Source: an uncultured Candidatus Berkelbacteria bacterium
GTDB taxonomy: Bacteria; Patescibacteriota; UBA1384; XYA2-FULL-43-10; CAINNR01
Assembly (NCBI GenBank): GCA_903851235.1
Contig: CAINNR010000032.1
Location: 25 to 64,024, forward strand
DNA: 64,000 nt
Direction of reading: 5' to 3'
Shown here: piece after piece, positions 37,338 through 49,400 of the stretch
Position numbering within the stretch: the first letter of the stretch is position 1
How the letters are laid out: each line of letters begins with the position of its first letter
Program-made: the position numbers and the translations under genes
The notes under the pieces: model-generated
Databases searched by the model: none
The model's input: the letters and a program-made list of their open reading frames with translations, nothing else
What the model was told of the DNA's origin: nothing

Positions 37338-37413
37338 GGGGTCGTAGTGTAGTGGTTATCACGTCTCCCTGTCACGGAGAAGATCGCCGGTTCGAGTCCG
37401 GTCGACCCCGCCA
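37338..37413 (+). tRNA. tRNA-Asp (anticodon GTC). It marks the left boundary of the cassette array.
   Basis: Acceptor ggggtcg/cgacccc, anticodon stem-loop tctcc-ctGTCac-ggaga, T-arm ccggt-tcgagtc-cggt, discriminator g, CCA. A TTGAAT-17-TAAAGT promoter lies upstream. Confidence 0.85.
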
Positions 37414-37476
37414 TTAAAATTAGTCGCTATCAGAGCGTCTTTTTTTGTATCAGGCAGACCGGATGCAGAACTTTTG
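37411..37476 (+). repeat. Boundary element E0: the tRNA-Asp 3' end, its downstream hairpin, T-tract and the right inverted repeat. This is the template that every later boundary element copies.
   Basis: ccattaaaattagtcgctatcagagcgtctttttttgtatcaggcagaccggatgcagaacttttg. Confidence 0.75.
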
Positions 37477-37525
37477 TATTTCTGAATACTAATCAGGTTT
37501 CATTTTATTGCATTGATCTCTAAGT

Positions 37526-38245
37526 TTGGATATTATTGAGGTTATGATAGATGGAATAAAACAGAAATTACTAGATATAAGCCAACCTTGCCCAGAGCGA
37601 GACCGCGTTTTTGTTCTGAAATATTTGGGTACCAACAAAGAATATCTGAACATACCGGCGCCAGCCAGAGATAAAATTATTTCAAAGGTTATTGTCGAAA
37701 CTTCCGATCTTCCGCCAGAAAAGATTATCGAAATTCTAGATGAATTATTTAGTTCCGGGATTTATGACTACATAAATTTTGCGGGAAAATTTCTTTCAAA
37801 AAATAAAACCATTCGCAATTTTATCTCCCTTGATCAGCTTGAAAGTTGGATTGCGCAAACAAAGGGTTGGGCCGAGTGTGATAGTATATGTCAGTCTATG
37901 TTTGGCGGGGTTGAAGTATTAGACCGTTGGAAAGAATGGGCGAGAGCTATCAAAGAGTTTTCCAGTAGCGACAATATTCAAATTCGCAGAGCAAGTCTAG
38001 TTCTGCAAACTCGACCAGCCAGAGAAGTTACTGACTTAAATTTCAGACGGTTGGCATTTATAACCATTGAAAAATTGATGGATGAAAGGGATATTTTAAT
38101 TACTAAAGCAATATCCTGGCTCTTACGAGACCTTTCTATCAAAAACAAAACTGAAGTTAGAAAATTTTTGAAAACAAATCAATCAGTTCTTCCAGCGATT
38201 GCATACCGAGAAACAATGAAGAAGATTGAAACGGGGAAAAAGTAG
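37526..38245 (+). CDS. Cassette 1: DNA alkylation repair enzyme-like (AlkD/AlkC HEAT-like repeat family). Tentative.
   Basis: 239-aa all-helical ORF. Its length and the C-terminal 'ISWLLRDLS...REAMK'-like pattern fit pfam DNA_alkylation. Confidence 0.45.
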   Translation: MDIIEVMIDGIKQKLLDISQPCPERDRVFVLKYLGTNKEYLNIPAPARDKIISKVIVETSDLPPEKIIEILDELFSSGIYDYINFAGKFLSKNKTIRNFISLDQLESWIAQTKGWAECDSICQSMFGGVEVLDRWKEWARAIKEFSSSDNIQIRRASLVLQTRPAREVTDLNFRRLAFITIEKLMDERDILITKAISWLLRDLSIKNKTEVRKFLKTNQSVLPAIAYRETMKKIETGKK

Positions 38246-38273
38246 CGATAACAAAAAACGGCTAGCAATTGAT

Positions 38274-38370
38274 CAAAAAAGTTCTAACATCGTTCGCTAT
38301 TTCCCGCCAGCAAACCGAATGATGTTAGAACTATTCGGTTTAATCGCTCTAGAAGCGATTTTTTTGTTGT
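38274..38370 (+). repeat. Boundary element E1: perfect 11-bp inverted repeats, a tRNA-3' mimic and a terminator.
   Basis: caaaaaaGTTCTAACATC-gttcgctatttcccgcca-...GATGTTAGAAC, then aatcgctctagaagcgattttttt. Confidence 0.8.
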
Positions 38371-38426
38371 GCGCCAGGGCTGAAATAAACTAACTAAACA
38401 TAGAGTTTCAAACAGTCATCGACATA

Positions 38427-38455
38427 TTGACATTTATTAATTAATATGATATTAT
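38427..38455 (+). promoter_or_regulatory. Consensus promoter of cassette 2; leaderless mRNA.
   Basis: TTGACA, 17 nt, TATTAT, with the ATG at 38463 seven nt after the -10. Confidence 0.6.
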
Positions 38456-38462
38456 GCTCATA

Positions 38463-38723
38463 ATGACCACTCAGAAGGAGACTGACATGACACTGCTTGA
38501 GTTCGTGAAGATGTTGGGGACGATCATGATCCGTGCGATCTTTGACGTTGTCCGGCCTCTCTCGCCGATCATCGGCGCGTTGGCCTTGATTGGGTTCGTC
38601 GTCGAGATCGTCCGGCACCATAGTACATCGTGGGAGCTTGCGCTGTCAGCGTTAGCCCTTGGCGCCATGGCTTACCTGACGCGGCGGCCTGAGCTGCGCG
38701 GGTACACAATGTTCCCGAATTGA
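38463..38723 (+). CDS. Cassette 2: small GC-rich membrane protein, hypothetical.
   Basis: MTTQKETDMTLLEF..., two predicted TM helices. Terminator at 38782-38826. Confidence 0.5.
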   Translation: MTTQKETDMTLLEFVKMLGTIMIRAIFDVVRPLSPIIGALALIGFVVEIVRHHSTSWELALSALALGAMAYLTRRPELRGYTMFPN

Positions 38724-38830
38724 CCGCGCCCCCGCTAGGGCAGGTCACAAACCCATCCCCAATACTCTTCAGTTGCGGGGAAGGACCAGAGCAATCAAAA
38801 CATTGATTTTTCTGGTCCTTTTTTAAATCA

Positions 38831-38931
38831 CAATAGTTCTAACGTCATTCGCTATCTCCCGCCATTTAAATTAGTCGCTCTTATAGCGTCTATTTTTTGT
38901 TACGGCAGACCGAATGTAGAACTTTTTATTG
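38831..38931 (+). repeat. Boundary element E2.
   Basis: caatagttctaac...cgctatctcccgccattt...agtcgctcttatagcgtctattttttgttacggcagaccgaatgtagaacttttt. Confidence 0.8.
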
Positions 38932-38982
38932 AGTGTTAACTTTCGAATTAGAATTTTTAACGGTGATGTATCTGAAATCCAG

Positions 38983-39011
38983 TTGACAAACATATTAAAA
39001 GTTGATTATAT
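38983..39011 (+). promoter_or_regulatory. Consensus promoter of cassette 3; leaderless mRNA.
   Basis: TTGACA, 17 nt, TTATAT, with the ATG six nt downstream. Confidence 0.55.
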
Positions 39012-39017
39012 AAGCGT

Positions 39018-39710
39018 ATGCAAGAAAAAGTCTCCAAAATAAAAAAATATTACGACAATCCTGATCAATATCTGGCGGAACATAAGGATTTTTTTTCTAT
39101 CCATAATCCCGAAAAAGATGTGGATTTTTTAATAAAAGTATTGGAAATTGAAAAAAGCGATAATATTCTTGACATAACTTGCGGTCAGGGACGACACACG
39201 ACTGAACTAGCAAAAAGAGGTTATACAGTAAGTGGTGTTGATTTTTCTTCTTCTCTTATTGACGAAGCAAAACAAATAGCTATCGATGCTAATATTAAAT
39301 CACAGTATTATATCCAGAATATCGAGTCACTTAAGTTACCATCAAAGTTTGATATGGCATATTGGTTTTTCTCTGATTTTGCCAACATTGACCTTGCATC
39401 GGCAATAAAATCTATTTCTAATCAGCTCAATCCCGGCGCTAGAGTCCTATTCGATTCAGATAGTCTTTTCCGAATTGTAAGTCATTTGCAAAATAATCCG
39501 GACTCTCCATACAAATTTGACCCAAAGTTACTTCAGTTAATAGACAATTCTCTCGGTCTTAGCATCCCTTATCCAACTTTCCTTATGTGGCAAGATTGGT
39601 TGAACAAAAATGAACTTGAGATTATTAATGTTTGGGGAAATTACGATCTCTCATCTTATGATATTAAAAGTCCTCGTCTGATCATTTTAGCTAATAAAAA
39701 AGCTGCTTAA
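39018..39710 (+). CDS. Cassette 3: class I SAM-dependent methyltransferase.
   Basis: Motif I 'ILDITCGQGRHTTELAKRGYTVSGVDFS'. Confidence 0.75.
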   Translation: MQEKVSKIKKYYDNPDQYLAEHKDFFSIHNPEKDVDFLIKVLEIEKSDNILDITCGQGRHTTELAKRGYTVSGVDFSSSLIDEAKQIAIDANIKSQYYIQNIESLKLPSKFDMAYWFFSDFANIDLASAIKSISNQLNPGARVLFDSDSLFRIVSHLQNNPDSPYKFDPKLLQLIDNSLGLSIPYPTFLMWQDWLNKNELEIINVWGNYDLSSYDIKSPRLIILANKKAA

Positions 39711-39744
39711 GTCAGAATCGACCTAAACAGCTTGTAGTTCTCCG

Positions 39745-41175
39745 CTATGCCGAGGTGGCATGGGAATTGATCGTGTCATAGAGATTGTCGACCTTGCACT
39801 TGAAGAGGCCGGGGTCCTCTGTTAGTATCCACATCAGCTCAAGTACAGAGTCATGGATCTCCTCGCACTTGAAATGAGGCGAACGCAGGTCTCTCGTGGT
39901 CTGATAGTTCTCTCCTCGACAGTTGCCGGCACAGATATACCTGATATCGCAAGCCGCGCATTTTGGATTCATACTATCGATGTTCAGACTGCGAAGATCC
40001 GTCAGAATGGGGGATCCCTTCCAGATCTCAGCCAAACTATCGGTTTTCAGATTGCCCAGGCAGAAATCGGGGACCGCAGTATCGGCGCATGGGTACAGTG
40101 TGCCGTCCGGTTTAACGTAAACCGCTCGATTCGTACCGATTCCACAGCCGAAGCTTTTGACGCCTCCTGCGATTCCCATCACTTGGTTTGCGAAGGTCGA
40201 GTACATCATCAACTGCTGAAGTCGCTGATCATCTCGTATTGCTTCGAAAACCTTCCGGTAGAAATCCGCCAAAGGGACAGCAACGAGTTGTTGCTTCGTT
40301 TCGGCGCTGTTGCCTCGGCCTACATTCATCATGTTTAAACAGTTAAGGCCTTGGACTCCAAGAGAATCGACCAACTTGAGTGTTGGTCGGACCTCATCGA
40401 TATTGCCTGCGTGAATAAACATGTTGACGGCAACTGAGATCCCTGCGTCGCACAGTGCCTTGATGTTGTTGACTGTTGTAGTGAATGTTCCCTCTCCACG
40501 GATGTATTCGTGGCTCTCAGCCCGACATCCGTCAAGGGAAATCGACATTTTCAGCCGGGGATATTTCGCCAGTTGTTTGATATCTGCTGGCGCCAACAGA
40601 GTCGCATTGGTGTTCACTTGAGCGAAATAGCCATGGTTGTGAACATATTCAATCAGATCCATGGCATCGGGGCGGGTAAACAGCTCACCGCCGGTTAGGG
40701 CAACGCGCGATATGCCGTTTTCCCAGGGCATACTCGAAAGTTGATCGATAACTGCTTTGATTTCGACAGAAGTCATCTCGCCGGGGATCTTCTCTTTGGC
40801 CATGGCATAACACATTGCGCATTCCATGTTGCAGAGTTGAGTTGTGGCGATAACCAAGACATTTTCGACTTCATTGACTTGGAAATCCGGCTTATTCTCT
40901 TCGACATCAACCTTCTCACCATCTACTACCAGCACTCCAGCGGAGTGCAGCAGATCGATAGTTTCAGCGACGATGTCGCCAGCCTCCTCTGCTGAGAGTC
41001 CCAATTGGGTTCTGATCTTAGTGACAGCCACATCAGAGTTTCCACAAGCCAACGACTCAAGGATGAGGGCAATCTCCGCCGTTGCAGAGAACCAGTAGGG
41101 TGCTGAGGGAAAGATCACGACTGCTGATTCTTCCCTGAAATAGACCGATGGTTTTTCGGTGAATGCCAACTGCAT
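39745..41175 (-). CDS. Cassette 4: radical SAM enzyme with a C-terminal SPASM domain and a ~110-aa N-terminal extension (a possible RiPP recognition element). Likely a peptide-modifying maturase. GC-rich.
   Basis: 'CNMECAMC' (CxxxCxxC) and C-terminal 'CAACDIRYICAGNCRGENY'. RBS GGGAGA lies before ATG at 41175. Confidence 0.8.
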   Translation of the reverse strand: MQLAFTEKPSVYFREESAVVIFPSAPYWFSATAEIALILESLACGNSDVAVTKIRTQLGLSAEEAGDIVAETIDLLHSAGVLVVDGEKVDVEENKPDFQVNEVENVLVIATTQLCNMECAMCYAMAKEKIPGEMTSVEIKAVIDQLSSMPWENGISRVALTGGELFTRPDAMDLIEYVHNHGYFAQVNTNATLLAPADIKQLAKYPRLKMSISLDGCRAESHEYIRGEGTFTTTVNNIKALCDAGISVAVNMFIHAGNIDEVRPTLKLVDSLGVQGLNCLNMMNVGRGNSAETKQQLVAVPLADFYRKVFEAIRDDQRLQQLMMYSTFANQVMGIAGGVKSFGCGIGTNRAVYVKPDGTLYPCADTAVPDFCLGNLKTDSLAEIWKGSPILTDLRSLNIDSMNPKCAACDIRYICAGNCRGENYQTTRDLRSPHFKCEEIHDSVLELMWILTEDPGLFKCKVDNLYDTINSHATSA

Positions 41176-41198
41176 TTCGGTCTCCCTTCAAAAAAGAT

Positions 41199-41226
41199 CA
41201 GTGAGGCGCGCTCGCGCGCCTCACTG
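41199..41226 (-). terminator. Attenuator/terminator hairpin between the precursor peptide gene and the maturase.
   Basis: Perfect 12-bp stem cagtgaggcgcg-cgag-cgcgcctcactg followed by a U-tract on the minus strand. Confidence 0.6.
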
Positions 41227-41239
41227 TTGTTACGTGGAG

Positions 41240-41332
41240 CTACTGGCCCCGGTAGTACATCGTCCCTTGTGACTCCTTAGTCAAGACGACGATACGACGA
41301 TTGCCACGGTTCAAAATCCGAAACTTCCGCAT
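41240..41332 (-). CDS. 30-aa candidate RiPP precursor peptide (MRKFRILNRGNRRIVVLTKESQGTMYYRGQ). It is not in the supplied ORF track.
   Basis: A strong SD (AGGAGGagcgtcATG) and a TTGACA promoter on the minus strand at ~41408. It lies directly upstream of the radical-SAM/SPASM gene and is separated from it by an attenuator hairpin. Confidence 0.55.
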   Translation of the reverse strand: MRKFRILNRGNRRIVVLTKESQGTMYYRGQ

Positions 41333-41478
41333 GACGCTCCTCCTGTCAGATGGTGTAAGCTGTCGAAACAGCTTCACTATTATTATTAACATACTTTTTT
41401 TACTTTTGTCAACAGCATCGAGTAAATCTGATAACTTTATGAGGATATTTTTATTAATTTTTATGCTAAAATTTGATT

Positions 41479-42153
41479 ATGAATTGGAAAATTTATAAAA
41501 CACAACATTATACTTTTCACTACTTCTCAGGAACTTTGGCAGAAAAGGAAATTGAGAAAATAGCGGATGAACAGGAAGCGTTTTATCGTCATATTTTGTC
41601 GTAACTAAATTTGAAAAATGAGCGTACCATAAACTATTTTTTATATCCAGCGAATCAACTAAAGGGTGAAATAATGGGCGATGATGGTAATGGCAATACT
41701 AATCGAGAAAAATTTGAAGTCTACGCTGTCTACAATGAAAATATAAAATGTATTGGTGCGCATGAAGATACTCATCTCCTATCTCTTCCATTGGGATTGG
41801 CAACTAAACTATTTCGAGAAGGCCTGGCAGAGTTTATGAGTAAAGAATGACATGGAAAAACTCATGATTTTTGGGCTAAAAAATTTCTGAGTGAAAAAAA
41901 GATTCCTGGACTAGCGAAAATTTTAGATGATAAAGAGGGGGATAAAATCAGCGACTTAATTTCTTATCCTTGCGCCGGCTCTTTTTACATATTTTTAATA
42001 TCTAAAATTGGTAAAGGTATTTTTTTAAAACTTTATGGAGCCCTAGACCGAAATATAAATGTTGAAATAAACTTAGTAACAATTAAAGATATCACAAGTA
42101 AATCTTTAGACCAGTGGCAAAAAGAATGGGCAGAAAAAGTGTTGTACCAGTAA
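41479..42153 (+). pseudogene. Cassette 5: decayed gene. One continuous frame is interrupted by TAA (41602-41604) and TGA (41848-41850).
   Basis: My translation reads MNWKIYKTQHYTFHYFSGTLAEKEIEKIADEQEAFYRHILS*LNLKNERTINYF...AEFMSKE*HGKTHDFWAKKF...KVLYQ* in a single frame. No boundary element separates it from cassette 4. Confidence 0.5.
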
Positions 42154-42200
42154 AATATCTGCCTCTTGTTCATCAACTAGTCCAACCTTAGGGAGCCATA

Positions 42201-42297
42201 CAAAAAGTTCTAACTTCCCCCGCTGTGTTCCGCCATTGAAAAAGTCTCTCTGGAAGAGATTATTTTTGTATACGGCAGACTGGATATAGAACTTTTG
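42201..42297 (+). repeat. Boundary element E5.
   Basis: caaaaagttctaacttcccccgctgtgttccgccattgaaaaagtctctctggaagagattatttttgtatacggcagactggatatagaacttttg. Confidence 0.8.
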
Positions 42298-42414
42298 TTT
42301 TTAAACGTAAAACTTCGGATTGGATTTGAAACGAAATGTATGGGCTATTGTCCAAGAGGTCGTCATCATGTACAGATGTTTGACAAAACTGTTGATTGCC
42401 AATAGACTTAGACT

Positions 42415-42756
42415 ATGAAAACAATCGAAGACAAAATAAGTATCAAAGATTTGCAGGAGATGGCAGAAAAGATGTTCGGCAATTTGGTTAAAGCGGTAAT
42501 TGACATAGAGAAAGAGGCGATGGTCGTTGACGCCGAGCTTTATTCAGACGAGGAAGCGGTTCTAATTGAAAACGGATCAAAACAAAAAGATCTTTGGGGA
42601 ATAAATATCTATCCAAATTTACCCAAAGCCGACCAAATTGAATTTGATTCAATGATTAATTTGCGACCAAAACAGAACAACAGAAGCCGGAGTGTTGATG
42701 ATCCAAAAATCAGAGAAATAATACTAAAAATTTGTGATAAATTAATCAAACAATGA
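42415..42756 (+). CDS. Cassette 6a: hypothetical protein, first gene of a two-gene cassette; leaderless.
   Basis: 113 aa. TTGACA-17-TAGACT promoter with the ATG six nt after the -10. Confidence 0.5.
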   Translation: MKTIEDKISIKDLQEMAEKMFGNLVKAVIDIEKEAMVVDAELYSDEEAVLIENGSKQKDLWGINIYPNLPKADQIEFDSMINLRPKQNNRSRSVDDPKIREIILKICDKLIKQ

Positions 42757-43082
42757 CATATGAACATCAAAATTTGGCCGAAGGCAAGTGGAATAAAATT
42801 CCATTTTTTGAGCAGATGGCTAATATCGGAAGTGAGGTTTTTCGCACAATCAGTTGGAAGAAAAAAAACATTGATTATTCAAATAAAGCTTTTGACAGAA
42901 CTCTCGAACTACTGGATATGACGATTGAAGATTCTAAAAATCGAGGACGACTAAAAGAATTAGTTCGTTTGCGTGAAGTCCTGACCGATTATTTTGTCTT
43001 TGACAATGAGTACAAATCAAATGATGAATTATGGCAGAAGTATTTTTACGCGTTCAATTATGTCGCTAGAATAAATTGTTAG
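42753..43082 (+). CDS. Cassette 6b: hypothetical protein, start overlapping 6a (ATGA).
   Basis: 109 aa, translationally coupled to 6a. Confidence 0.5.
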   Translation: MTYEHQNLAEGKWNKIPFFEQMANIGSEVFRTISWKKKNIDYSNKAFDRTLELLDMTIEDSKNRGRLKELVRLREVLTDYFVFDNEYKSNDELWQKYFYAFNYVARINC

Positions 43083-43083
43083 A

Positions 43084-43150
43084 CAAAAAGTTCTAAATTT
43101 AATCGGCGCTCTAAATCTCCGCCAATGAAAAAGTTAGTCCAGTGCTAGTT
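43084..43150 (+). repeat. Degenerate boundary element E6 (left half only).
   Basis: aaaaagttctaaatt...cgctctaaatctccgccaatgaaaaagttagtccagtgctagttttttt. Confidence 0.5.
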
Positions 43151-43216
43151 TTTTTGCGTACTAAAATAGTATATTCTAATTATCTTTTAGCAAATTGTCC
43201 CTGTCCAAAGTGGTAT

Positions 43217-43888
43217 TGTAGATATATGAAATTATTTTTATCACTAGCTCTGATTGCTTTGCTAACAATAGCTGTCTATTTTTGTTTAACCAAAAAACCT
43301 AGCGATAAAAAATACAATAATATATCCAGAAAAAAAGCTATTATGATATCCGCAACAATATGCATTATTCTGGTTGGAACACTGGCTTATTTAATGTATA
43401 AATCGGCGACAGCTCCAGATATGCAATGTACTACAGTTCACACAACTTCACTGATGCCACCAAAGTCTCTGGCTAGTGCTATGGATTATTACCTTCAGGG
43501 CAATTATGATTATGAAACCGGAAATTGTCAGAAAGCGATTGTTAATTTTAATGCCTCAATTCAACTTGATCCGAATTATCCACAAGCATATAACAACCGG
43601 GCATACACTTTTATGCGAATGCAAAATTATAAAGACGCATTATCAGATCTAGACAAAGCCATTGCCCTCAATCCAAATTATATCAACGCCTTAATGAACA
43701 GGGGCGACATTCACAATTATTACTATGCGATTGATCGCAAAAGCTCGACTGAGGACTACGAAAAAGTAATTTCCCTGGGCGGTGAAAAAGATACAAGCGT
43801 GTGTGGACATCTACTTTTGGCGAAACATGATGGCTGGAATTTGGGCACTCTTTTAGCTCTTCACCAAACTTTGTACAGTTGCAATTAA
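43217..43888 (+). CDS. Cassette 7: membrane-anchored TPR-repeat protein.
   Basis: N-terminal TM (MKLFLSLALIALLTIAVYF), then tandem TPRs (AIVNFNASIQLDPNYPQAYNNRAYTFMRMQNYKDALSDLDKAIALNPNYINALMNRG). Confidence 0.65.
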   Translation, partial: CRYMKLFLSLALIALLTIAVYFCLTKKPSDKKYNNISRKKAIMISATICIILVGTLAYLMYKSATAPDMQCTTVHTTSLMPPKSLASAMDYYLQGNYDYETGNCQKAIVNFNASIQLDPNYPQAYNNRAYTFMRMQNYKDALSDLDKAIALNPNYINALMNRGDIHNYYYAIDRKSSTEDYEKVISLGGEKDTSVCGHLLLAKHDGWNLGTLLALHQTLYSCN

Positions 43889-43911
43889 CTTGTGCACTCA
43901 TCATAAAATAA

Positions 43912-44060
43912 ACTGGTTCTGACATCATCCGCTATACCTCGCCATTTTGCCCGGGTCTAGCGGAGGGCGTTAGAACCGGAGGAATAATCGCTTTCAGAGC
44001 GGTTATTTTTGTTTTTACAAGTACAAAATTATTTCACAAAATAGATGTTAGAACTAAAAA
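43912..44060 (+). repeat. Boundary element E7: an extended form with two right-IR copies.
   Basis: ggttctgacatcatccgctatacctcgccatttt...gcgttagaacc...aatcgctttcagagcggttattttt...atagatgttagaact. Confidence 0.7.
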
Positions 44061-44094
44061 AGTGTTTCCGAGCTCTTGAATCATTGCGCGGCTG

Positions 44095-44123
44095 TTGACA
44101 TGTGAATGTATTTATGATAAACT
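44095..44123 (+). promoter_or_regulatory. Promoter of cassette 8.
   Basis: TTGACA, 17 nt, TAAACT. Confidence 0.45.
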
Positions 44124-44161
44124 AATTGAAGTTTTCACCAACCCAGAAAGAGTGATGCCAC

Positions 44162-44503
44162 ATGATGTTGCTCCAGATTGTCGGCATGCCAAAGGACGCA
44201 CCCGAACTGGATTGCCTGAGGAAGAGGATAGCTGAGACAATGGCCCCTGTTCTTGAACAGGATCTGCTGGTTACCTTCGTGTGCGACATGGAACCAGTTG
44301 AGGTATGCGCTGGACTGTTGTTCAGACTGGAGCCATTTGGTGAAATGACACAAAAGCTCGAGCAAGATGCTGCCGGTCTGTCGGAGCCTCTTGGTGAGCT
44401 TATCCAGGGGTATGCCAAGCAACATGGACATCAGTTCTGTTGTCCGTTCGAGATCACATATGTTCATCCCAAGACTCAGTATGTTTTGGGGGTGAATGGG
44501 TGA
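44162..44503 (+). CDS. Cassette 8: GC-rich hypothetical protein (a weak MIF/tautomerase-like N-terminal pattern).
   Basis: 113 aa. GC content clearly above the host. A terminator gcccc-ttgatc-ggggc-ctttttt follows. Confidence 0.45.
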   Translation: MMLLQIVGMPKDAPELDCLRKRIAETMAPVLEQDLLVTFVCDMEPVEVCAGLLFRLEPFGEMTQKLEQDAAGLSEPLGELIQGYAKQHGHQFCCPFEITYVHPKTQYVLGVNG

Positions 44504-44574
44504 CCAGTCACCAATTCTGCTTCTTTCACACTCGCCCCTTGATCGGGGCCTTTTTTAATTCAAATTTCCATTAC

Positions 44575-44672
44575 CAGAGTTCTATCATTGTTCGCTATTT
44601 CTCGCCATTGAAAATAGTCGCTTCCAGAGCGTCTGTTTTGCATCCGGCAGACCGGACGTAGAGCTTTTTTTA
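44575..44672 (+). repeat. Boundary element E8.
   Basis: cagagttctatcattgttcgctatttctcgccattgaaaatagtcgcttccagagcgtctgttttgcatccggcagaccggacgtagagcttttttt. Confidence 0.8.
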
Positions 44673-44709
44673 AATGTAAAGCTTCGAATTAGAATTTTTC
44701 ACAGCAGTA

Positions 44710-44738
44710 TTGACTTTTGAGTCTGAATATGATATTAT
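44710..44738 (+). promoter_or_regulatory. Promoter of cassette 9, followed by a ~185-nt structured leader.
   Basis: TTGACT, 17 nt, TATTAT. The leader contains several hairpins and a strong SD (aaGGAGGcgtttaggATG). Confidence 0.5.
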
Positions 44739-44929
44739 ATAGTAATCTCAGAATAAGCTGATGGGTATCGAATTTCTGGCGTAAATTAAGACAAATATAG
44801 GCACGAGAGTCTTTAAAACTTGTTTTTTAGAGATTCTCCCGCCTGTATAGGCGGCTATCACATAGCTGGGGTACTTTCATCCTCTACCCCTGAAGCCTAG
44901 AGCTTAAAGCTACAAAGGAGGCGTTTAGG

Positions 44930-45460
44930 ATGAACGCCAGCAAAGTGATTAGAATGCAGTTGACCAAAAGAAGGCTTCCGGCCGTGTGGGAGCGCGGCGG
45001 TTACACTGGCATCAGTATTGACAGTGAGCCAGTGGGTATTGGGATCGTCTGGGCTAACCCGGATGGTATGCCCTATCGCCCATATTTCATTCAGGACACC
45101 GAACCGAACGACCAGCAGGCATTGGTTCCTGTCGAGAACGGGAGCTGGATGGTCGTTGCGAGACAGTGGCATCCTGGTAGATTCAACTATGAGGTCTGCC
45201 AGGTTACCGATGTTCGCACCGATCCAGACTCGTACGGCTTGTCTTTGAGTGAAGTGTTTCAGATGACCGATGGTGAGCCAGACTATCAGTGGCGTCATGA
45301 ATGGCTCAGCTGTTGGTCTCAACAGAAGTCGCACGGCCACCCTCAATCCGTGATCTCAGCCGTACCCATCACACTGAAGGCGGCTATCGACGCCGCCCTG
45401 GCCAAATGCCAGTGCCCGGGTTGCAGGGAAGCACACTATGTGCTGCCTCGCAAGAAGTAG
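44930..45460 (+). CDS. Cassette 9: GC-rich hypothetical protein.
   Basis: 176 aa with a strong SD and no family recognised. Confidence 0.55.
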   Translation: MNASKVIRMQLTKRRLPAVWERGGYTGISIDSEPVGIGIVWANPDGMPYRPYFIQDTEPNDQQALVPVENGSWMVVARQWHPGRFNYEVCQVTDVRTDPDSYGLSLSEVFQMTDGEPDYQWRHEWLSCWSQQKSHGHPQSVISAVPITLKAAIDAALAKCQCPGCREAHYVLPRKK

Positions 45461-45498
45461 CAACAACAAGGAGGACGGACATCAGTTGTTCGTCTTCC

Positions 45499-45549
45499 CC
45501 CTCAACACATTAAGTGTTCTGATGAGTCGTTGAAATTACGACGAAAGGG
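45499..45549 (+). ncRNA. Hammerhead ribozyme (type III, open helix III), copy 1.
   Basis: CCCU-C|AACAC-auuaa-GUGUU-CUGAUGA-G-UCG-uugaaauua-CGA-C-GAAA-GGG. All core nucleotides are present. Helix I is a 5-bp hairpin, helix II is 4 bp closed by the conserved G10.1-C11.1 pair, and helix III is CCCU/AGGG. The predicted cleavage is after C at 45503. Confidence 0.75.
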
Positions 45550-45554
45550 ATAAA

Positions 45555-45653
45555 CAAAATAGTTCTAACTCCCTTCGCTATGCTCCGCCATTAAAAATAG
45601 TCGCTCTAGAAGCGATTATTTTTCTATGTGATAGACAGGATGTAAAACTTTTG
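45555..45653 (+). repeat. Boundary element E9.
   Basis: caaaatagttctaactcccttcgctatgctccgccattaaaaatagtcgctctagaagcgattatttttctatgtgatagacaggatgtaaaacttttg. Confidence 0.8.
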
Positions 45654-45685
45654 TATTCTTAAGCAATTAAAATATAATGTAACTA

Positions 45686-45714
45686 TTGACATTTTATAAC
45701 TTTCTTGCTATAAC
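45686..45714 (+). promoter_or_regulatory. Promoter of cassette 10.
   Basis: aactaTTGACA, 17 nt, TATAAC. An SD (AGGGAGG) then precedes the GTG start. Confidence 0.5.
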
Positions 45715-45750
45715 TATTATACATTCTGAGAATACAAGGGAGGTCATCAC

Positions 45751-46077
45751 GTGACCAGTCAGGAAATACGAGATGCATTGACCGGCGTCGTCGCGGGCAC
45801 CAAGCTACGCCTTACCTTCAACGCTGGGAGTGGCAAGAAGGGCTTTCTCGATGGTGAGACCAAGGCGGCAGTCTGCTACTTCGTAATGATGAAGGACGCG
45901 AACATCATCTTTCCGGACGAGATGGACTGGGCCGTGATGTACGCCGTCGGGTTGTCAGGGTATTGGGATCACGATTCGAACCGCATTGTCGAGGTTCTGA
46001 TCCCAGAGGGTTTCAATCTCGACTGGTTCTCCCAGCGTCTCGAAGGCGGGTTGGAGAAGCTCGAAGTCATCGGATGA
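45751..46077 (+). CDS. Cassette 10: GC-rich hypothetical protein.
   Basis: 108 aa, GTG start. The terminator caccacctagc...ggctggtggtttttgtttt (46104-46140) belongs to the same family as the one after cassette 16. Confidence 0.5.
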   Translation: MTSQEIRDALTGVVAGTKLRLTFNAGSGKKGFLDGETKAAVCYFVMMKDANIIFPDEMDWAVMYAVGLSGYWDHDSNRIVEVLIPEGFNLDWFSQRLEGGLEKLEVIG

Positions 46078-46160
46078 GTTACTCCGACGACAGGTGTAAA
46101 GATCACCACCTAGCTGTAACAGGCTGGTGGTTTTTGTTTTAGACAGCGAAATTCTTGAAA

Positions 46161-46232
46161 CAAAATGTTCCAACTTCCTCTGCTGTCTACTGCCAATAAA
46201 TTAGTCTCTGATAGAGAGTCTTTTTTTGTGTA
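46161..46232 (+). repeat. Degenerate boundary element E10.
   Basis: aaatgttccaacttcctctgctgtctactgccaataaattagtctctgatagagagtctttttttgtgtact. Confidence 0.5.
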
Positions 46233-46283
46233 CTATTGGTTCCACTTGGTCTATAAATCGACTTTGTATGGTAGAATGAAGCC

Positions 46284-46745
46284 ATGAGAATGATAATTAT
46301 ATATCAATCATTTCACCACAAGAACACAGAAAAAGTGGTAAATGCAGTAGCCCCAATTCTTAATTGTGAAGCAATCCCGCTCTCAAAAGCGAAACCTGAA
46401 ATATTAGCCGATTATGACGTTATAGGTTTTGCCAGCGGAGTTTATTATGCAAAGCCGCATGTTGGATTCGAGAAGCTAATTGCCAAAAACAACTTTCAAG
46501 GGAAAATGTGTTTTATCATCGCTACAAGCGGTGGACCTGATACTTTCTATAATAAATTCCATGACAATTTTAGAAAAACTTTTACAGACGCTGGATTTGA
46601 GATAATCGACTTTTTTCAATGCCTCGGTTTTGATACCTATCCTGCGATTTCAAAGCCTTTTGGTGGTTTTGCCAAAGGACACCCCAATAAAGACGACCTT
46701 GAAACGGCGAGATTATGGGCAAAAAAACTAATTGACAAGATATAG
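46284..46745 (+). CDS. Cassette 11: flavodoxin-like fold protein (flavodoxin/NAD(P)H-FMN reductase-like); leaderless.
   Basis: 'MRMIIIYQSFHHKNTEKVVNAVA...DVIGFASGVYYAKP'. A -10 TAGAAT sits six nt before the ATG. Confidence 0.6.
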   Translation: MRMIIIYQSFHHKNTEKVVNAVAPILNCEAIPLSKAKPEILADYDVIGFASGVYYAKPHVGFEKLIAKNNFQGKMCFIIATSGGPDTFYNKFHDNFRKTFTDAGFEIIDFFQCLGFDTYPAISKPFGGFAKGHPNKDDLETARLWAKKLIDKI

Positions 46746-46837
46746 AGCTGCAACTTATATCAGGACTACGGAATTGTTTTGAAATCAAATTAATCAGAAC
46801 GTTCAAAGAAGGTCTTGGCTCCATATTGTTGATAATC

Positions 46838-46905
46838 CAGTTCTAACATTGTTTGCTGTTCCCCGTCAACGAAAACAGTCGCTACCAGAGCGACTGTTTT
46901 TAATT
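46838..46905 (+). repeat. Boundary element E11 (left IR, mimic, perfect 7-bp terminator hairpin).
   Basis: ccagttctaacattgtttgctgttccccgtcaacgaaaacAGTCGCTaccagAGCGACTgtttttaatt. Confidence 0.7.
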
Positions 46906-46956
46906 TAAGCCGGGAAATTTTTACTAAAAAACGCAAAAGATCTTGCCACTTTACTT

Positions 46957-47328
46957 CTACTTCTTCGCCTTTGACTGGTTGTTGCTTATGGCTGCGCGAA
47001 CAAGAGCCGCAATCTTTCCTTCTTGTACCTGATCACTTTCAGAAAAATCAATAGCCCGCCACTTATTACCAGCCAGTCCGGCGTTGAAGAGTTTGTCAGT
47101 ATCACTAATTGCCGCACCGTCCGGAAAAACAAGCTTCACTTTATTTTTAAAAATATTTCCGACACAAATAATCCCGCCCAACGACCAGATTGGTGACCCC
47201 ATCCATTTCCAGTCTTCAATAATTTTAGGGTCAACAGTGAGAATAATCTTGCGAAGTTTAGCCAGTGTGGCGCCGCGCCAGTCGTGATTCTTTGCGATCA
47301 AATTGTCAATTTCTTCACTTGGATTCAT
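46957..47328 (-). CDS. Cassette 12 (reverse orientation): DUF1801 (YdhG-like) domain protein.
   Basis: The start is set at the Met preceded by GGAGGcggcc (MNPSEEIDNLIAKNHDW...). The track's 47370 start is 14 codons further up. Size and 'W..GSPIW' pattern fit DUF1801. Confidence 0.55.
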   Translation of the reverse strand: MNPSEEIDNLIAKNHDWRGATLAKLRKIILTVDPKIIEDWKWMGSPIWSLGGIICVGNIFKNKVKLVFPDGAAISDTDKLFNAGLAGNKWRAIDFSESDQVQEGKIAALVRAAISNNQSKAKK

Positions 47329-47452
47329 GGCCGCCTCCATATGTTTCCATGTTGTTTGGGTTAAATTCATTCATCTTACTCCTCGTATTAATCTATCTTA
47401 AAACTATCACATTTGATATTTAGGCACAAGCTTCTATTAAACTATTATTAAA

Positions 47453-47540
47453 ACAAAAAGTTCTAACATCCTCCACTATCTGACACCGAATGCCCGAGTC
47501 TAGTGGAGTATATAAATGCTACGAGCGGATATCTTTGTTT
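47453..47540 (+). repeat. Boundary element E12 (partly degenerate).
   Basis: caaaaagttctaacatcctccactatctgacaccgaatgcccgagtctagtggag...cggatatctttgttttt. Confidence 0.6.
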
Positions 47541-47609
47541 TTAAGACGCAATATAATTTCAGAAATTTGTAGGTTAAAACTAAAAATGTTGGCACTTTAC
47601 TCGAAACCC

Positions 47610-47638
47610 TTGACATTATGTAAATAATTTAGTATAGT
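47610..47638 (+). promoter_or_regulatory. Consensus promoter of cassette 14.
   Basis: TTGACA, 17 nt, TATAGT. The leader has an SD (cGGAGGcacaagATG). Confidence 0.6.
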
Positions 47639-47679
47639 TTTTCGTACAAGGTTGTTAATACCGTCTTCGGAGGCACAAG

Positions 47680-47913
47680 ATGACACTCGGACTCATACTG
47701 CTGGTCGCTGGAGTTATTGCATTTTTGGTAGGATTTGCCATTGCAGCGAACAACATGGCTTCAGTCGCCAAGAACCCTGACGACATGCTTGACAGCCAGA
47801 ACAACCCGTTCGTGAAGCATCTTGGCGCCATGGTAGTCATGGCCTTCGGTGGTGGTAGCGCGCTCATCGGCCTTGTCCTAATCGTCATTGCGCTGGTCGG
47901 CAAACACGCGTAG
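47680..47913 (+). CDS. Cassette 14: small GC-rich two-TM membrane protein.
   Basis: 77 aa, MTLGLILLVAGVIAFLVGFAIAA... Confidence 0.55.
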   Translation: MTLGLILLVAGVIAFLVGFAIAANNMASVAKNPDDMLDSQNNPFVKHLGAMVVMAFGGGSALIGLVLIVIALVGKHA

Positions 47914-47966
47914 TAAGCACAACAACAGAGGGGATTCACTAAGAGGGTACGAAGTTGTACTCTCCC

Positions 47967-48017
47967 CCCTCAACATTAAATTGTTCTGATGAGTCGTTGA
48001 AAATTACGACGAAAGGG
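47967..48017 (+). ncRNA. Hammerhead ribozyme (type III), copy 2.
   Basis: CCCU-C|AACA-uuaaau-UGUU-CUGAUGA-G-UCG-uugaaaauua-CGA-C-GAAA-GGG. Helix I is 4 bp; in copy 1 a compensatory change makes it 5 bp. Confidence 0.75.
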
Positions 48018-48021
48018 ATAA

Positions 48022-48112
48022 ACAAATAGTTCTATCATCCTCCATTACCTCTTACCATGAAAAAGTAGCCTTGGAAGCTATTTTTTTGTATATGGCAGAC
48101 CGAATGTAGAAC
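48022..48112 (+). repeat. Boundary element E14.
   Basis: caaatagttctatcatcctccattacctcttaccatgaaaaagtagccttggaagctatttttttgtatatggcagaccgaatgtagaacg. Confidence 0.8.
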
Positions 48113-48136
48113 GTCTGTCCTTCTAGGCTCACAACT

Positions 48137-48165
48137 ATTGACACACTTGGCACTTTTTGTTATAG
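48137..48165 (+). promoter_or_regulatory. Perfect-consensus promoter of cassette 15, duplicated at 62890-62918.
   Basis: aactaTTGACA-cacttggcactttttgt-TATAGT-gatttgcgaagac. The 46-bp segment 48133-48178 is almost identical to 62886-62931. Confidence 0.7.
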
Positions 48166-48196
48166 TGATTTGCGAAGACAGAATCCTGAAAGGATG

Positions 48197-48712
48197 TGTT
48201 TGTTTATGTCCTGCGGATGTCCGAGACCGTTGCTACTAGATGTTGATCTGCCGTTTCTGATCGAGACCGTCTTACCCCACGTGCTGGCCGAGGTTGCCAG
48301 AGTCAGCGACATGCGAGATCGAGAGGGTGGCATGTTCGTGTTGATGCGAGCCGTCACCGGCGAGATCATCGTCGGCCCGAAGCAGGTCGGCCAGATTAAC
48401 AACGGTAAGGAAGATAAGTACGCCGAGTTCGCTCAGGAGAAACCGGTTCGGCTCCTCGAACACCCAGATCACTGTCTGAGCTGGGAGAGTCGAGATCCGG
48501 ACAACAACAAGTGGGGTGGCGCCGTCAATGATGGCCTCTTCGTCTGGTCCTTCTCCGGACTCTCGGAGGAACAGGACGAAGCGCTCGTGCTGATGGCATC
48601 CCATCTCTGCGGCCGCATTCGCAACGGCGACCCCAAGGCAATGGCAGAGATTTCCAATAACAGAATCATCATCGACAATCCCTACCTCTTCTGGTGTCCT
48701 CGGGAGAGTTAG
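48197..48712 (+). CDS. Cassette 15: GC-rich hypothetical protein.
   Basis: About 170 aa (MCLFMSCGCPRPLLLDV...). The start is ambiguous between ATGs at 48197 and 48209; the track uses TTG at 48170. Confidence 0.5.
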   Translation, partial: CLFMSCGCPRPLLLDVDLPFLIETVLPHVLAEVARVSDMRDREGGMFVLMRAVTGEIIVGPKQVGQINNGKEDKYAEFAQEKPVRLLEHPDHCLSWESRDPDNNKWGGAVNDGLFVWSFSGLSEEQDEALVLMASHLCGRIRNGDPKAMAEISNNRIIIDNPYLFWCPRES

Positions 48713-48762
48713 AGTGTCGGCGACACGGGGACTTACCCAAATGGGCACGACCTGTGCCCATT

Positions 48763-48813
48763 CCCTCAACATTAAATTGTTCTGATGAGTCGTTGAAAAT
48801 TACGACGAAAGGG
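48763..48813 (+). ncRNA. Hammerhead ribozyme (type III), copy 3.
   Basis: CCCU-C|AACA-uuaaau-UGUU-CUGAUGA-G-UCG-uugaaaauua-CGA-C-GAAA-GGG. It is preceded by the terminator-like hairpin gggcac-gacct-gtgccc. Confidence 0.75.
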
Positions 48814-48818
48814 ATGAG

Positions 48819-48918
48819 CAAATTGTTCTAGCTTACTACGCTATCTTCCGCCAATAAAAATAGTCGTTCTACGAGAGGTTATTTTTTTGTATATTGCGGA
48901 CCGGATGCAGAACTTTTG
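48819..48918 (+). repeat. Boundary element E15.
   Basis: caaattgttctagcttactacgctatcttccgccaataaaaatagtcgttctacgagaggttatttttttgtatattgcggaccggatgcagaacttttg. Confidence 0.8.
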
Positions 48919-48950
48919 TCTTTATTGACCATTGAAACATCACAAATCTA

Positions 48951-48979
48951 TTGACATTATATGATATACGTGATATATT
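48951..48979 (+). promoter_or_regulatory. Consensus promoter of cassette 16.
   Basis: tctaTTGACA, 17 nt, TATATT. The leader has an SD (taGGAGtctgcaATG). Confidence 0.55.
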
Positions 48980-49048
48980 ACCGAAGTAATATCGGGAACG
49001 GTAGACGTCTGGTATAACATCAAGTAAATTCTCTGATAGGAGTCTGCA

Positions 49049-49282
49049 ATGGCCACGCCTAAGAAAATCGCCATGCTTCTCTTCGGAGCAGGGTACCGTT
49101 TGTCCTTGACAGATGGGCACTACCGCTTCAGCGACAGATCAGGCAAGACGCTGCTTCAGCGCGACCAACCACCATCACGCTTTGATTTCGAAGTTCTTCA
49201 ATTTGCTAAGGGATCTGGGATTATCATCTCGAGCAATACCGATGTTGCCGAAGTAGCACGAGAACTAGCACAGATGGAGTAG
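49049..49282 (+). CDS. Cassette 16: GC-rich hypothetical protein.
   Basis: 77 aa. Terminator cccaccacctagccatatcaggctggtggtttttgtttt at 49295-49333. Confidence 0.5.
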   Translation: MATPKKIAMLLFGAGYRLSLTDGHYRFSDRSGKTLLQRDQPPSRFDFEVLQFAKGSGIIISSNTDVAEVARELAQME

Positions 49283-49354
49283 CGCGACTTGCGACCCACC
49301 ACCTAGCCATATCAGGCTGGTGGTTTTTGTTTTATCGGCCAAAATTATCGAGGC

Positions 49355-49400
49355 AAAAAAATTCTAACTTCCTAGTTGATCTCCGACAATGAAAAATCGC
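49355..49400 (+). repeat. Degenerate boundary element E16 (left half).
   Basis: aaaaaaattctaacttcctagttgatctccgacaatgaaaaat. Confidence 0.45.

Follow-up and report, generated by a model that had tools for sequence, protein, structure and literature searches.

What does a 30-codon open reading frame (ORF) encode when it lies just ahead of the gene of a radical S-adenosylmethionine (rSAM) enzyme, and is it the substrate of that enzyme? The question is raised by a minus-strand locus on contig CAINNR010000032.1 (assembly GCA_903851235.1) of an uncultured Candidatus Berkelbacteria bacterium, a member of the candidate phyla radiation (CPR; Patescibacteria). A stretch of 64,000 nucleotides (nt) of this contig (positions 25 to 64,024 of the forward strand), hereafter the window, was analyzed. 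An earlier examination of its letters (the sequence-only reading) took the ORF and the enzyme gene for a small unit producing a peptide made by the ribosome and modified after translation (RiPP). Our analysis favors, with a probability of roughly 80%, a self-contained, mobile and CPR-centered module of three genes of the RiPP type that represents a new family. It would consist of a precursor peptide, a maturase combining a RiPP recognition element (RRE) with rSAM and SPASM domains, and a class I methyltransferase. Bacteria of the CPR have tiny genomes and are usually called poor in secondary metabolism, and to our knowledge no modified peptide has been characterized from them so far.

The peptide gene and its transcript

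Re-reading of the region 39600..41600 on the minus strand recovered every element of the earlier account at its coordinates, including the 30-codon ORF with an AGGAGG 6 nt from its ATG and the hairpin with a 12-bp stem and a U-tract, followed by a ribosome-binding site. The module is laid out as follows:

41412..41407, minus strand: TTGACA box resembling a -35 element, by direct reading, 5' of the peptide gene
41357..41374, minus strand: small hairpin AAGCTGT-TTCG-ACAGCTT in the 5' untranslated region (5'-UTR) of the peptide transcript
41344..41339, minus strand: Shine-Dalgarno sequence AGGAGG, then 6 nt to the ATG at 41332
41332..41240, minus strand: putative precursor peptide gene, 30 amino acids (aa), MRKFRILNRGNRRIVVLTKESQGTMYYRGQ, stop codon TAG at 41242..41240
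41226..41199, minus strand: GC-rich intercistronic hairpin of 12 pairs (9 G-C), with a T-run after it at 41189..41198
41188..41182, minus strand: ribosome-binding site AAGGGAG of the rSAM gene, ahead of its start at 41175
41175..39745, minus strand: gene of the 476-aa rSAM enzyme (predicted RRE, rSAM and SPASM domains)
39700..39733, minus strand: terminator-like stem-loop of 15 pairs with a T-run, between the rSAM and methyltransferase genes, which converge
39018..39710, plus strand: gene of the 230-aa class I methyltransferase dependent on S-adenosylmethionine (SAM)

The sequence directly 3' of the 12-bp hairpin is ATCTTTTTTG, and the methyltransferase ORF extends at its 3' end into the stem-loop at 39700..39733.

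A lone 30-codon ORF could be a product of chance; its conservation could not. Scans of genome and metagenome contigs yielded 62 loci of the enzyme family (loci are cited below by L numbers), of which 49, the L065 variant among them, had upstream DNA available. In all 49, the strand of the enzyme gene also carries a small ORF 5' of it, ending 60-95 nt ahead of that gene. The sequence-only reading had staked its proposal on such conservation beside homologous enzymes and had suggested a search for similar pairs in other CPR genomes; they were found in dozens of them. Over the 49 loci the peptide follows the consensus ...I-L-N-[RK]-G-N-x-x-V-V-x-L-T-K-E-S-Q-G-x-M-Y-Y-R-[GAS]-[QE]*, and its last residues mostly read RGQ in clade A (at least 58% identity to the window enzyme) and RAE in clade B (49-55% identity). 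The peptide can be divided into a leader-like part, FRILNRGNxxVV, predicted to form a beta-hairpin, and the invariant core that follows, and constraint extends over all 24 C-terminal residues, the leader-like part included.

The codons point in the same direction. The peptide gene occurs in 32 distinct nucleotide versions, among which the residues G, N, L, T, K, E, Q, G, M, Y and Y are invariant with all their synonymous codons in use. Specifically, pairwise comparison over the 11 codons of the core LTKESQGxMYY gives 2551 synonymous codon differences against 282 that are non-synonymous. An in-frame start preceded by a Shine-Dalgarno sequence is present in 32/33 distinct versions, with a modal length of 30 aa. 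Because the ORF is conserved with the enzyme, shows this synonymous excess and has a ribosome-binding site and start in nearly all versions, comparative sequence evidence indicates that it is a real translated gene under strong purifying selection. It has been almost entirely overlooked by annotation: a search with the 50-aa extended ORF as query found only three called protein records among 5.8 billion protein clusters, and in public contigs with an identical enzyme (L115-L117) the gene is uncalled. No Pfam or NCBIfam model matches the peptide, the sole hit (RsgI_N, E-value = 0.14) being at chance level.

Concerning substitutions, Ser21 can be replaced by Thr or Ala, Leu17 by Met (in the L065 variant) and Arg28 by Leu (in L060), while position 29 is G, A or S and position 30 is Q or E. 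The constrained set is thus T-K-E-x-Q-G-x-M-Y-Y. Of the Tyr-Tyr-Arg-Gly tail to which the sequence-only reading drew attention, Tyr26 and Tyr27 are invariant and Arg28 and Gly29 are not, nor is the terminal Gln30. The peptide contains neither Cys nor Trp, and no Cys is conserved anywhere in its family, so that thioether formation is unlikely, in agreement with the earlier exclusion of this chemistry.

Upstream signals are less uniform. The proposed promoter holds as far as its TTGACA box is concerned, and a TTGAC(A) box recurs 66-100 nt 5' of the peptide start across homologous loci of clade A; a full sigma-70 site, however, was not reported at this box by a consensus promoter scan, which passed it over for its weak -10 region (poor when the spacing is 16-18 nt). 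Small hairpins comparable to that of the 5'-UTR were seen by eye at the same position in clade A (L001, L005, L006 and L007), and may have a role in mRNA stability.

The hairpin between the two genes folds as RNA at -28.3 kcal/mol (z = -3.8 against shuffled sequences). In nearly all loci a GC-rich stem of 10-14 pairs, whose sequence varies by locus, stands between the peptide stop and the ribosome-binding site of the enzyme gene, with a U-rich tail in only ~7/33 loci. We read it as a partial terminator or a protector of the transcript 3' end that increases precursor relative to enzyme, a device known from the lantibiotic and subtilosin operons. The label of attenuator, given in the sequence-only reading, was dropped: a switchable attenuator was rejected on account of the scarce U-tail and the lack of an alternative pairing in the window that competes with the hairpin (-82.3 against -66.9 kcal/mol, blocking the hairpin costing 15 kcal/mol).

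The same hairpin is the starting point of one other explanation, in which the small ORF encodes a regulatory leader or an arrest peptide: ribosomes stalling at its conserved C-terminus would control read-through of the hairpin into the rSAM gene, and the real substrate of the enzyme would be encoded elsewhere. The stop codon lies 13 nt ahead of a terminator-like structure in the window, and conservation of the amino-acid sequence is likewise a trait of arrest peptides. Against this, the competing antiterminator structure is missing, the distance from stop codon to stem ranges from 0 to 38 nt across loci and most hairpins are without a U-tail. The constraint also covers the whole 24-residue C-terminal part with its leader-like beta-hairpin, no other candidate substrate is conserved nearby, and the enzyme has, in its model, a peptide-binding RRE fold. 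We therefore regard an arrest peptide as highly improbable.

The enzyme and its methyltransferase partner

The 476-aa enzyme contains a Radical_SAM domain (PF04055) at residues 111-268 (E-value = 3e-20) and a SPASM domain (PF13186) at 344-410 (E-value = 4e-12). Its rSAM motif is C115-x3-C119-x2-C122; C119 and C122 are invariant and C115 is at least 90% conserved in an alignment of 89 sequences, while all three are invariant in one of 19 sequences. Seven SPASM cysteines are conserved as well (C344, C363, C406, C409, C415, C419 and C437) and align with those of CteB. Judged from these alignments, the enzyme carries the cysteine set of a three-cluster rSAM/SPASM protein, the seven SPASM residues serving two auxiliary clusters. 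Both the CxxxCxxC motif and the C-terminal Cys cluster of the earlier account are hence borne out by Pfam and by the alignments.

An AlphaFold2 model built from the 89 sequences (mean predicted local distance difference test, pLDDT, 92.8) places a separate domain of four strands and three helices (beta-beta-beta-beta-alpha-alpha-alpha, residues 2-78) before the rSAM barrel. By this predicted fold the domain is an RRE, a PqqD-like winged helix-turn-helix, which fits the earlier suggestion that the N-terminal extension recognizes the peptide. The segments are approximately 1-98 for the RRE-like part (nt 41175..40882), 105-290 for the rSAM core and 340-440 for the SPASM domain. Foldseek ranked SkfB, CteB, SuiB, anSME (anaerobic sulfatase maturase), TigE and PqqE as the nearest structures to the enzyme model. 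The modeled architecture, RRE followed by rSAM and SPASM, is that of peptide maturases and not of sulfatase maturases or heme enzymes. The enzyme thus shows the rSAM motif, the seven SPASM cysteines and, by model fold, the RRE of its class, together with a co-located and co-conserved short precursor gene.

The sequence-only reading had proposed comparing the maturase with hidden Markov models (HMMs) of PqqE, MftC, XyeB and other families. Bit scores against NCBIfam were compared with the curated cut-offs and the 25 best hits were inspected; no curated family was reached, all hits staying far under their cut-offs, and no non-RiPP family claimed the enzyme. XyeB was not among these 25 hits. The informative scores were:

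StsB (NF045574): 156 bits, cut-off 625 (top hit)
TIGR04053: 151 bits, cut-off 395
ScmF: 139 bits, cut-off 400
WgkB: 137 bits, cut-off 650
NirJ2: 136 bits, cut-off 500
AhbD: 136 bits, cut-off 500
MftC: 128 bits, cut-off 265
AlbA: 93 bits, cut-off 850
PapB: 91 bits, cut-off 340
PqqE: 85.5 bits, cut-off 381
anSME: 81 bits, cut-off 349

These scores bear on the objection that the protein is an ordinary rSAM/SPASM enzyme outside the RiPP class (anSME, or the NirJ/AhbD type of heme and d1 synthesis) beside a fortuitous ORF. It scores far under the cut-offs of anSME (81 vs 349), NirJ2 (136 vs 500) and AhbD (136 vs 500), neither sulfatase nor heme genes were found nearby, the N-terminal RRE is absent from the anSME and heme/d1 families, and the small ORF is kept in 49/49 loci. 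This explanation is effectively refuted.

RiPP systems with an RRE-rSAM-SPASM maturase are a well-known class, from whose described members the present enzyme is distant. Maturases of the CteB, SuiB, SkfB and ChlB type share the order of RRE, rSAM and SPASM or twitch domain, but the enzyme is only 14-25% identical to them and their precursor families are unrelated to the peptide; CteB and SkfB act on thioether substrates, whereas our peptide has no conserved Cys, and SuiB joins Lys to Trp, which the peptide lacks. The HMM of the streptosactin maturase StsB, an RRE-containing sactipeptide maturase of the 'MftC group', aligns over enzyme residues 15-450 and thereby over both the RRE and the catalytic domains, yet the peptide has no Cys for sactionine bonds. 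The same holds for the sactipeptide and ranthipeptide maturases in general (StsB, AlbA, CteB, PapB): the core offers no Cys donors, and StsB, AlbA and PapB remain below cut-off. Full-length relatives of the enzyme at 26-28% identity (L015-L018, L023, L033) give no bridge to a known family, since they have no similar upstream peptide.

Within its own family, over 100 relatives, each of ~473-477 aa, share 45-73% identity with the enzyme. Where a taxon is named, it almost always falls within Patescibacteria (Uhrbacteria, Magasanikbacteria, Parcubacteria, Paceibacterota), and this also holds for the close relatives of the methyltransferase; four loci come from metagenome-assembled genomes labeled 'uncultured Gammaproteobacteria', a taxonomy given by label alone.

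All-against-all clustering of the flanking ORFs revealed one further conserved gene, that of the 230-aa methyltransferase. In 58/62 loci it adjoins the rSAM gene at the 3' end of the latter, in either orientation (convergent in clade A, co-directional in clade B), and it was overlooked when the locus was described as a two-gene unit of peptide and enzyme. The protein matches Methyltransf_25 and related Pfam families. Its own family is discrete, with 31 relatives at 40% identity or more followed by a drop to 26%, and is mostly confined to loci of the module; an extra member, L111, also lies in a complete module. The AlphaFold2 model of the methyltransferase (pLDDT 89.6) has as its nearest folds NmbA, unassigned methyltransferases, CypM and CcbJ (TM-scores ~0.7, E-values from 1e-14 to 1e-17). 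NmbA (for bacillithiol) and CcbJ are N-methyltransferases of small molecules, and CypM is the enzyme that N-methylates the N-terminus of the RiPP cypemycin. Although CypM, NmbA and CcbJ are the nearest solved folds, their identity to the window protein is 15-22%, and since the class I fold is generic, the atom that is methylated cannot be read from it; the fold comparison is a lead towards N-methylation.

An APH-family phosphotransferase gene follows directly after the methyltransferase in four distinct clade-A loci (L001 6176-7075, L004 6153-7070, L034 and L042; 35-62% identity). The gene is absent from the window.

Proposed modification, objections and meaning

In the mechanism that we propose, the FRILNRGNxxVV half of the peptide would dock on the RRE, the enzyme would cleave SAM reductively, and the resulting 5'-deoxyadenosyl radical would take a hydrogen from an invariant residue of the core T-K-E-x-Q-G-x-M-Y-Y. 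An intramolecular cross-link, C-C or C-O, could follow, for which the ring of Tyr26 or of Tyr27 is the likeliest acceptor, and the auxiliary clusters would take up the electron. The methyltransferase would subsequently add one or more methyl groups to the product, with an amine as our best guess of the target in view of the nearest solved folds, which are N-methyltransferases. By ending or protecting most transcripts after the peptide gene, the hairpin would keep the precursor in excess over the enzyme.

Which residues could be joined was considered against known chemistries. The triceptide formers XyeB, GrrM and FxsB, as well as RrrB (Arg-Tyr), TqqB (Thr-Gln ether) and WgkB, likewise have rSAM and SPASM domains, and the bond that they make runs from an aromatic ring or a hydroxyl group to an sp3 carbon. 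Set beside the substrates of these cyclophane formers and cross-linkers of rSAM RiPPs, the peptide offers Y-Y-R, T...Q and K...Y; their cut-offs are not reached, however (WgkB ranks in the middle of the hits), and the motif is single, not repeated. The triceptide motif (aromatic-X-X, linked at the C-beta of the third residue) is formally fitted by Y26-Y27-R28, while the tolerated exchange of Arg28 for Leu makes an Arg-Tyr link, as far as the natural variants tell, unlikely as the conserved reaction. A three-residue cyclophane on Y27-R28-G29 was ruled out, Gly having no C-beta. The remaining candidates are a Glu20-Tyr link (PqqE-like, with other spacing), Lys19-Tyr, a Thr18...Gln22 ether and a Y26-x-R28 cyclophane.

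The most serious competing explanation keeps the same parts and gives them another purpose. Instead of a bioactive peptide, the product might be a small redox cofactor or another conserved metabolite, as in the pyrroloquinoline quinone (PQQ) and mycofactocin pathways, excised from the Glu/Tyr core of its precursor after cross-linking and methylation. PqqE forms a Glu-Tyr C-C cross-link in PqqA, and MftC acts on Val-Tyr in MftA. Both systems share with the module a Cys-free peptide, an invariant Glu and Tyr and a highly conserved core, and both PqqE and MftC are rSAM-SPASM enzymes that need an RRE. The core stays the same although identity among the enzymes is no more than 45-73%, as the cores of PqqA and MftA do in their own families, Glu20 and Tyr26/27 are fixed, no exporter or immunity gene is conserved, and MftC is among the better HMM hits. 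In addition, StsB is grouped with MftC in a published survey (PMC10288494).

Other observations stand against it. Neither the MftC nor the PqqE cut-off is reached (128 vs 265 and 85.5 vs 381 bits), and the RRE is a separate protein in the known systems (PqqD, MftB) whereas it is fused in this enzyme. PqqA has Glu and Tyr in the spacing E-x3-Y, in contrast to E-x5/6-Y here, and the mycofactocin precursor ends in Val-Tyr while this peptide ends in R-[GAS]-[QE], so that its Tyr is not C-terminal. Flank clustering found no nearby genes like pqqB, pqqC, pqqD or pqqF, nor like mftB, mftD, mftE or mftF, and no cofactor-using enzyme is conserved in linkage. Finally, a sporadic module in mobile cassettes is unusual for a cofactor pathway. 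On balance, we judge a cofactor precursor of this kind distinctly unlikely, and prefer the three-gene RiPP-type module.

Several observations weigh against that preference. The N-terminal domain alone has no significant match in Pfam, PqqD included, and a 22-sequence profile of it found none among PDB sequences and solved RREs; its assignment as RRE therefore draws on the fold. Such absence of sequence-level matches is common for RREs. The flank clustering detected no conserved protease, transporter or immunity gene. The core is invariant, in contrast to the cores of antimicrobial RiPPs, which usually vary, and the cross-linking chemistry is a guess, made purely by inference. The methyltransferase may be neither obligatory for the module nor exclusive to it, as it is missing in L043, L065 and L069 and stands alone in L110 (4001-4696) and L113 (4001-4549); L079 has no room for it. 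The lone copies of L110 and L113 have cassette-type neighbors (HepT/MNT toxin-antitoxin pairs, NUDIX, GNAT).

Base composition adds a further point of this kind. The rSAM gene (50.5% GC) and the peptide gene (51.6%) are richer in GC than the window (41.7%), so the GC-richness of the region described earlier is real. It is not a peculiarity of the window, though: the GC excess of the rSAM gene over the methyltransferase gene runs through the family. At third codon positions the rSAM gene exceeds the adjacent methyltransferase gene by a median of 16 points (positive in 29/31 loci), and whatever the GC of the host, the former lies a median of 5.5 points above its flanks and the latter 7.4 below. 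Such a persistent gap is odd for a unit inherited as one.

The trio, recurring in dozens of Patescibacteria/CPR genomes, very probably represents, by its conserved gene content, a family of enzyme-modified peptides not described before, for which the chemistry is a proposal. In the literature searched we found no paper on this enzyme family, on its Cys-free invariant precursor or on the methyltransferase partner, and a compendium paper on rSAM RiPPs makes no mention of CPR or Uhrbacteria. The unit is well defined, with a 30-aa substrate that is almost never called, one enzyme and one methyltransferase, and about 50 natural sequence variants reveal which residues of the peptide matter. With a peptide free of Cys and Trp, and an enzyme outside every curated family, the reaction could add a type of cross-link new to rSAM chemistry. 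The combination of an invariant core with cassette mobility also raises the question of which accessory function is worth trading among episymbionts. A bolder idea, which we put forward tentatively and consider unlikely, is that the core peptide is not an antibiotic. It might instead be a signal or cofactor-like metabolite conserved in and specific to the CPR/Patescibacteria, made by new rSAM cross-linking on a Cys-free core plus methylation, and spreading by means of a cassette that plugs in at recombination sites linked to tRNA. Nearby histidine kinases of the seven-transmembrane (7TM) type could be receptors of such a signal.

Cassette array, mobility and neighboring genes

In the window the module is part of an array that starts at a tRNA gene. 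The delimiting features are:

37338..37413: tRNA-Asp, start of the array, which runs to ~49400
38826..38931, plus strand: left boundary repeat of the module cassette (copy of the tRNA-Asp 3' end and downstream sequence)
42197..42301, plus strand: right boundary repeat of the module cassette

Approximately 12 copies of a ~105-nt repeat are spread over 37338-49400. Each copy reproduces the tRNA-Asp 3' end, with its ..CCCGCCA, continues downstream with a small terminator hairpin and then GGCAGACCGGATGTAGAAC, and is preceded by an inverted box, AGTTCTAAC; the repeats carry inverted GTTCTAAC/GTAGAAC boxes. The cassettes between them measure 0.5-3.4 kb, GC-rich and AT-rich segments alternate, and promoters of the form TTGACA-N17-TATGAT occur within many of the cassettes (repeat family D8). 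Cassettes seem to have accumulated in tandem at a recombination site linked to the tRNA. The array is integron-like in appearance, although its repeats derive from tRNA-Asp, unlike classical attC sites. No recombinase or integrase for it was found among the ORFs scanned, which were not all ORFs of the window.

The largest cassette (38931..42197, 3.3 kb) is occupied by the module and by a decayed ORF with an HExxH motif, and the earlier placement inside a cassette array was thus confirmed down to its boundary repeats. The horizontal mobility of the module, also suggested before, is supported by the array and by direct repeats that bracket the module elsewhere, of 39 nt in L002, 172 nt in L004 and 110 nt in L009; that of L002 is perfect and encloses exactly the peptide, rSAM and methyltransferase genes. 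The identical module was found on contigs of only 2.2-3.4 kb in several metagenome assemblies (L115-L117), as is to be expected if the repeats break assemblies. Truncated remnants of the rSAM and methyltransferase genes are present in L014, L075-L077 and L084-L085, so decaying or split modules occur.

The decayed ORF of the cassette (41479..42150, plus strand, ~224 aa) is divergent from the peptide gene, has the motif HEDTH and is interrupted by a TAA at ~41603 and a TGA at ~41849. It was considered as the leader peptidase of the module and rejected on the grounds of these two in-frame stops, the lack of any Pfam hit and its absence of conservation elsewhere.

Some modules have further genes beside them. 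In two clade B loci, L011 and L009, this is a second rSAM unit that has the upstream sequence of the module in common with it. In L011 (809-3738) the unit comprises a Cys-rich 46-aa ORF, MENIAITSLVELEAISMATANLDNPGHKLSGECCCDQCCDDYVCKD, and a 435-aa rSAM enzyme, a classical RiPP pair whose presence speaks for the RiPP reading of the module. In L009 (6245-9125) it is an rSAM enzyme of 484 aa with no obvious upstream peptide. Histidine kinases are encoded within 1-3 kb in L001 (1095-2753), L002 (6222-6929), L011 (6889-8646) and L113 (1-957), those of L001, L011 and L113 matching the 7TM type (HisKA_7TM).

Apart from its protein-coding cassettes, the array holds three elements on the plus strand that resemble type III hammerhead ribozymes with an intact CUGAUGA...GAAA core (45496-45552, 47964-48020 and 48760-48816). 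They score 32-41 bits with Rfam RF00008 (E-values from 5e-6 to 9e-4), under the gathering score of 48.5, and each is located directly 5' of a cassette-boundary repeat.

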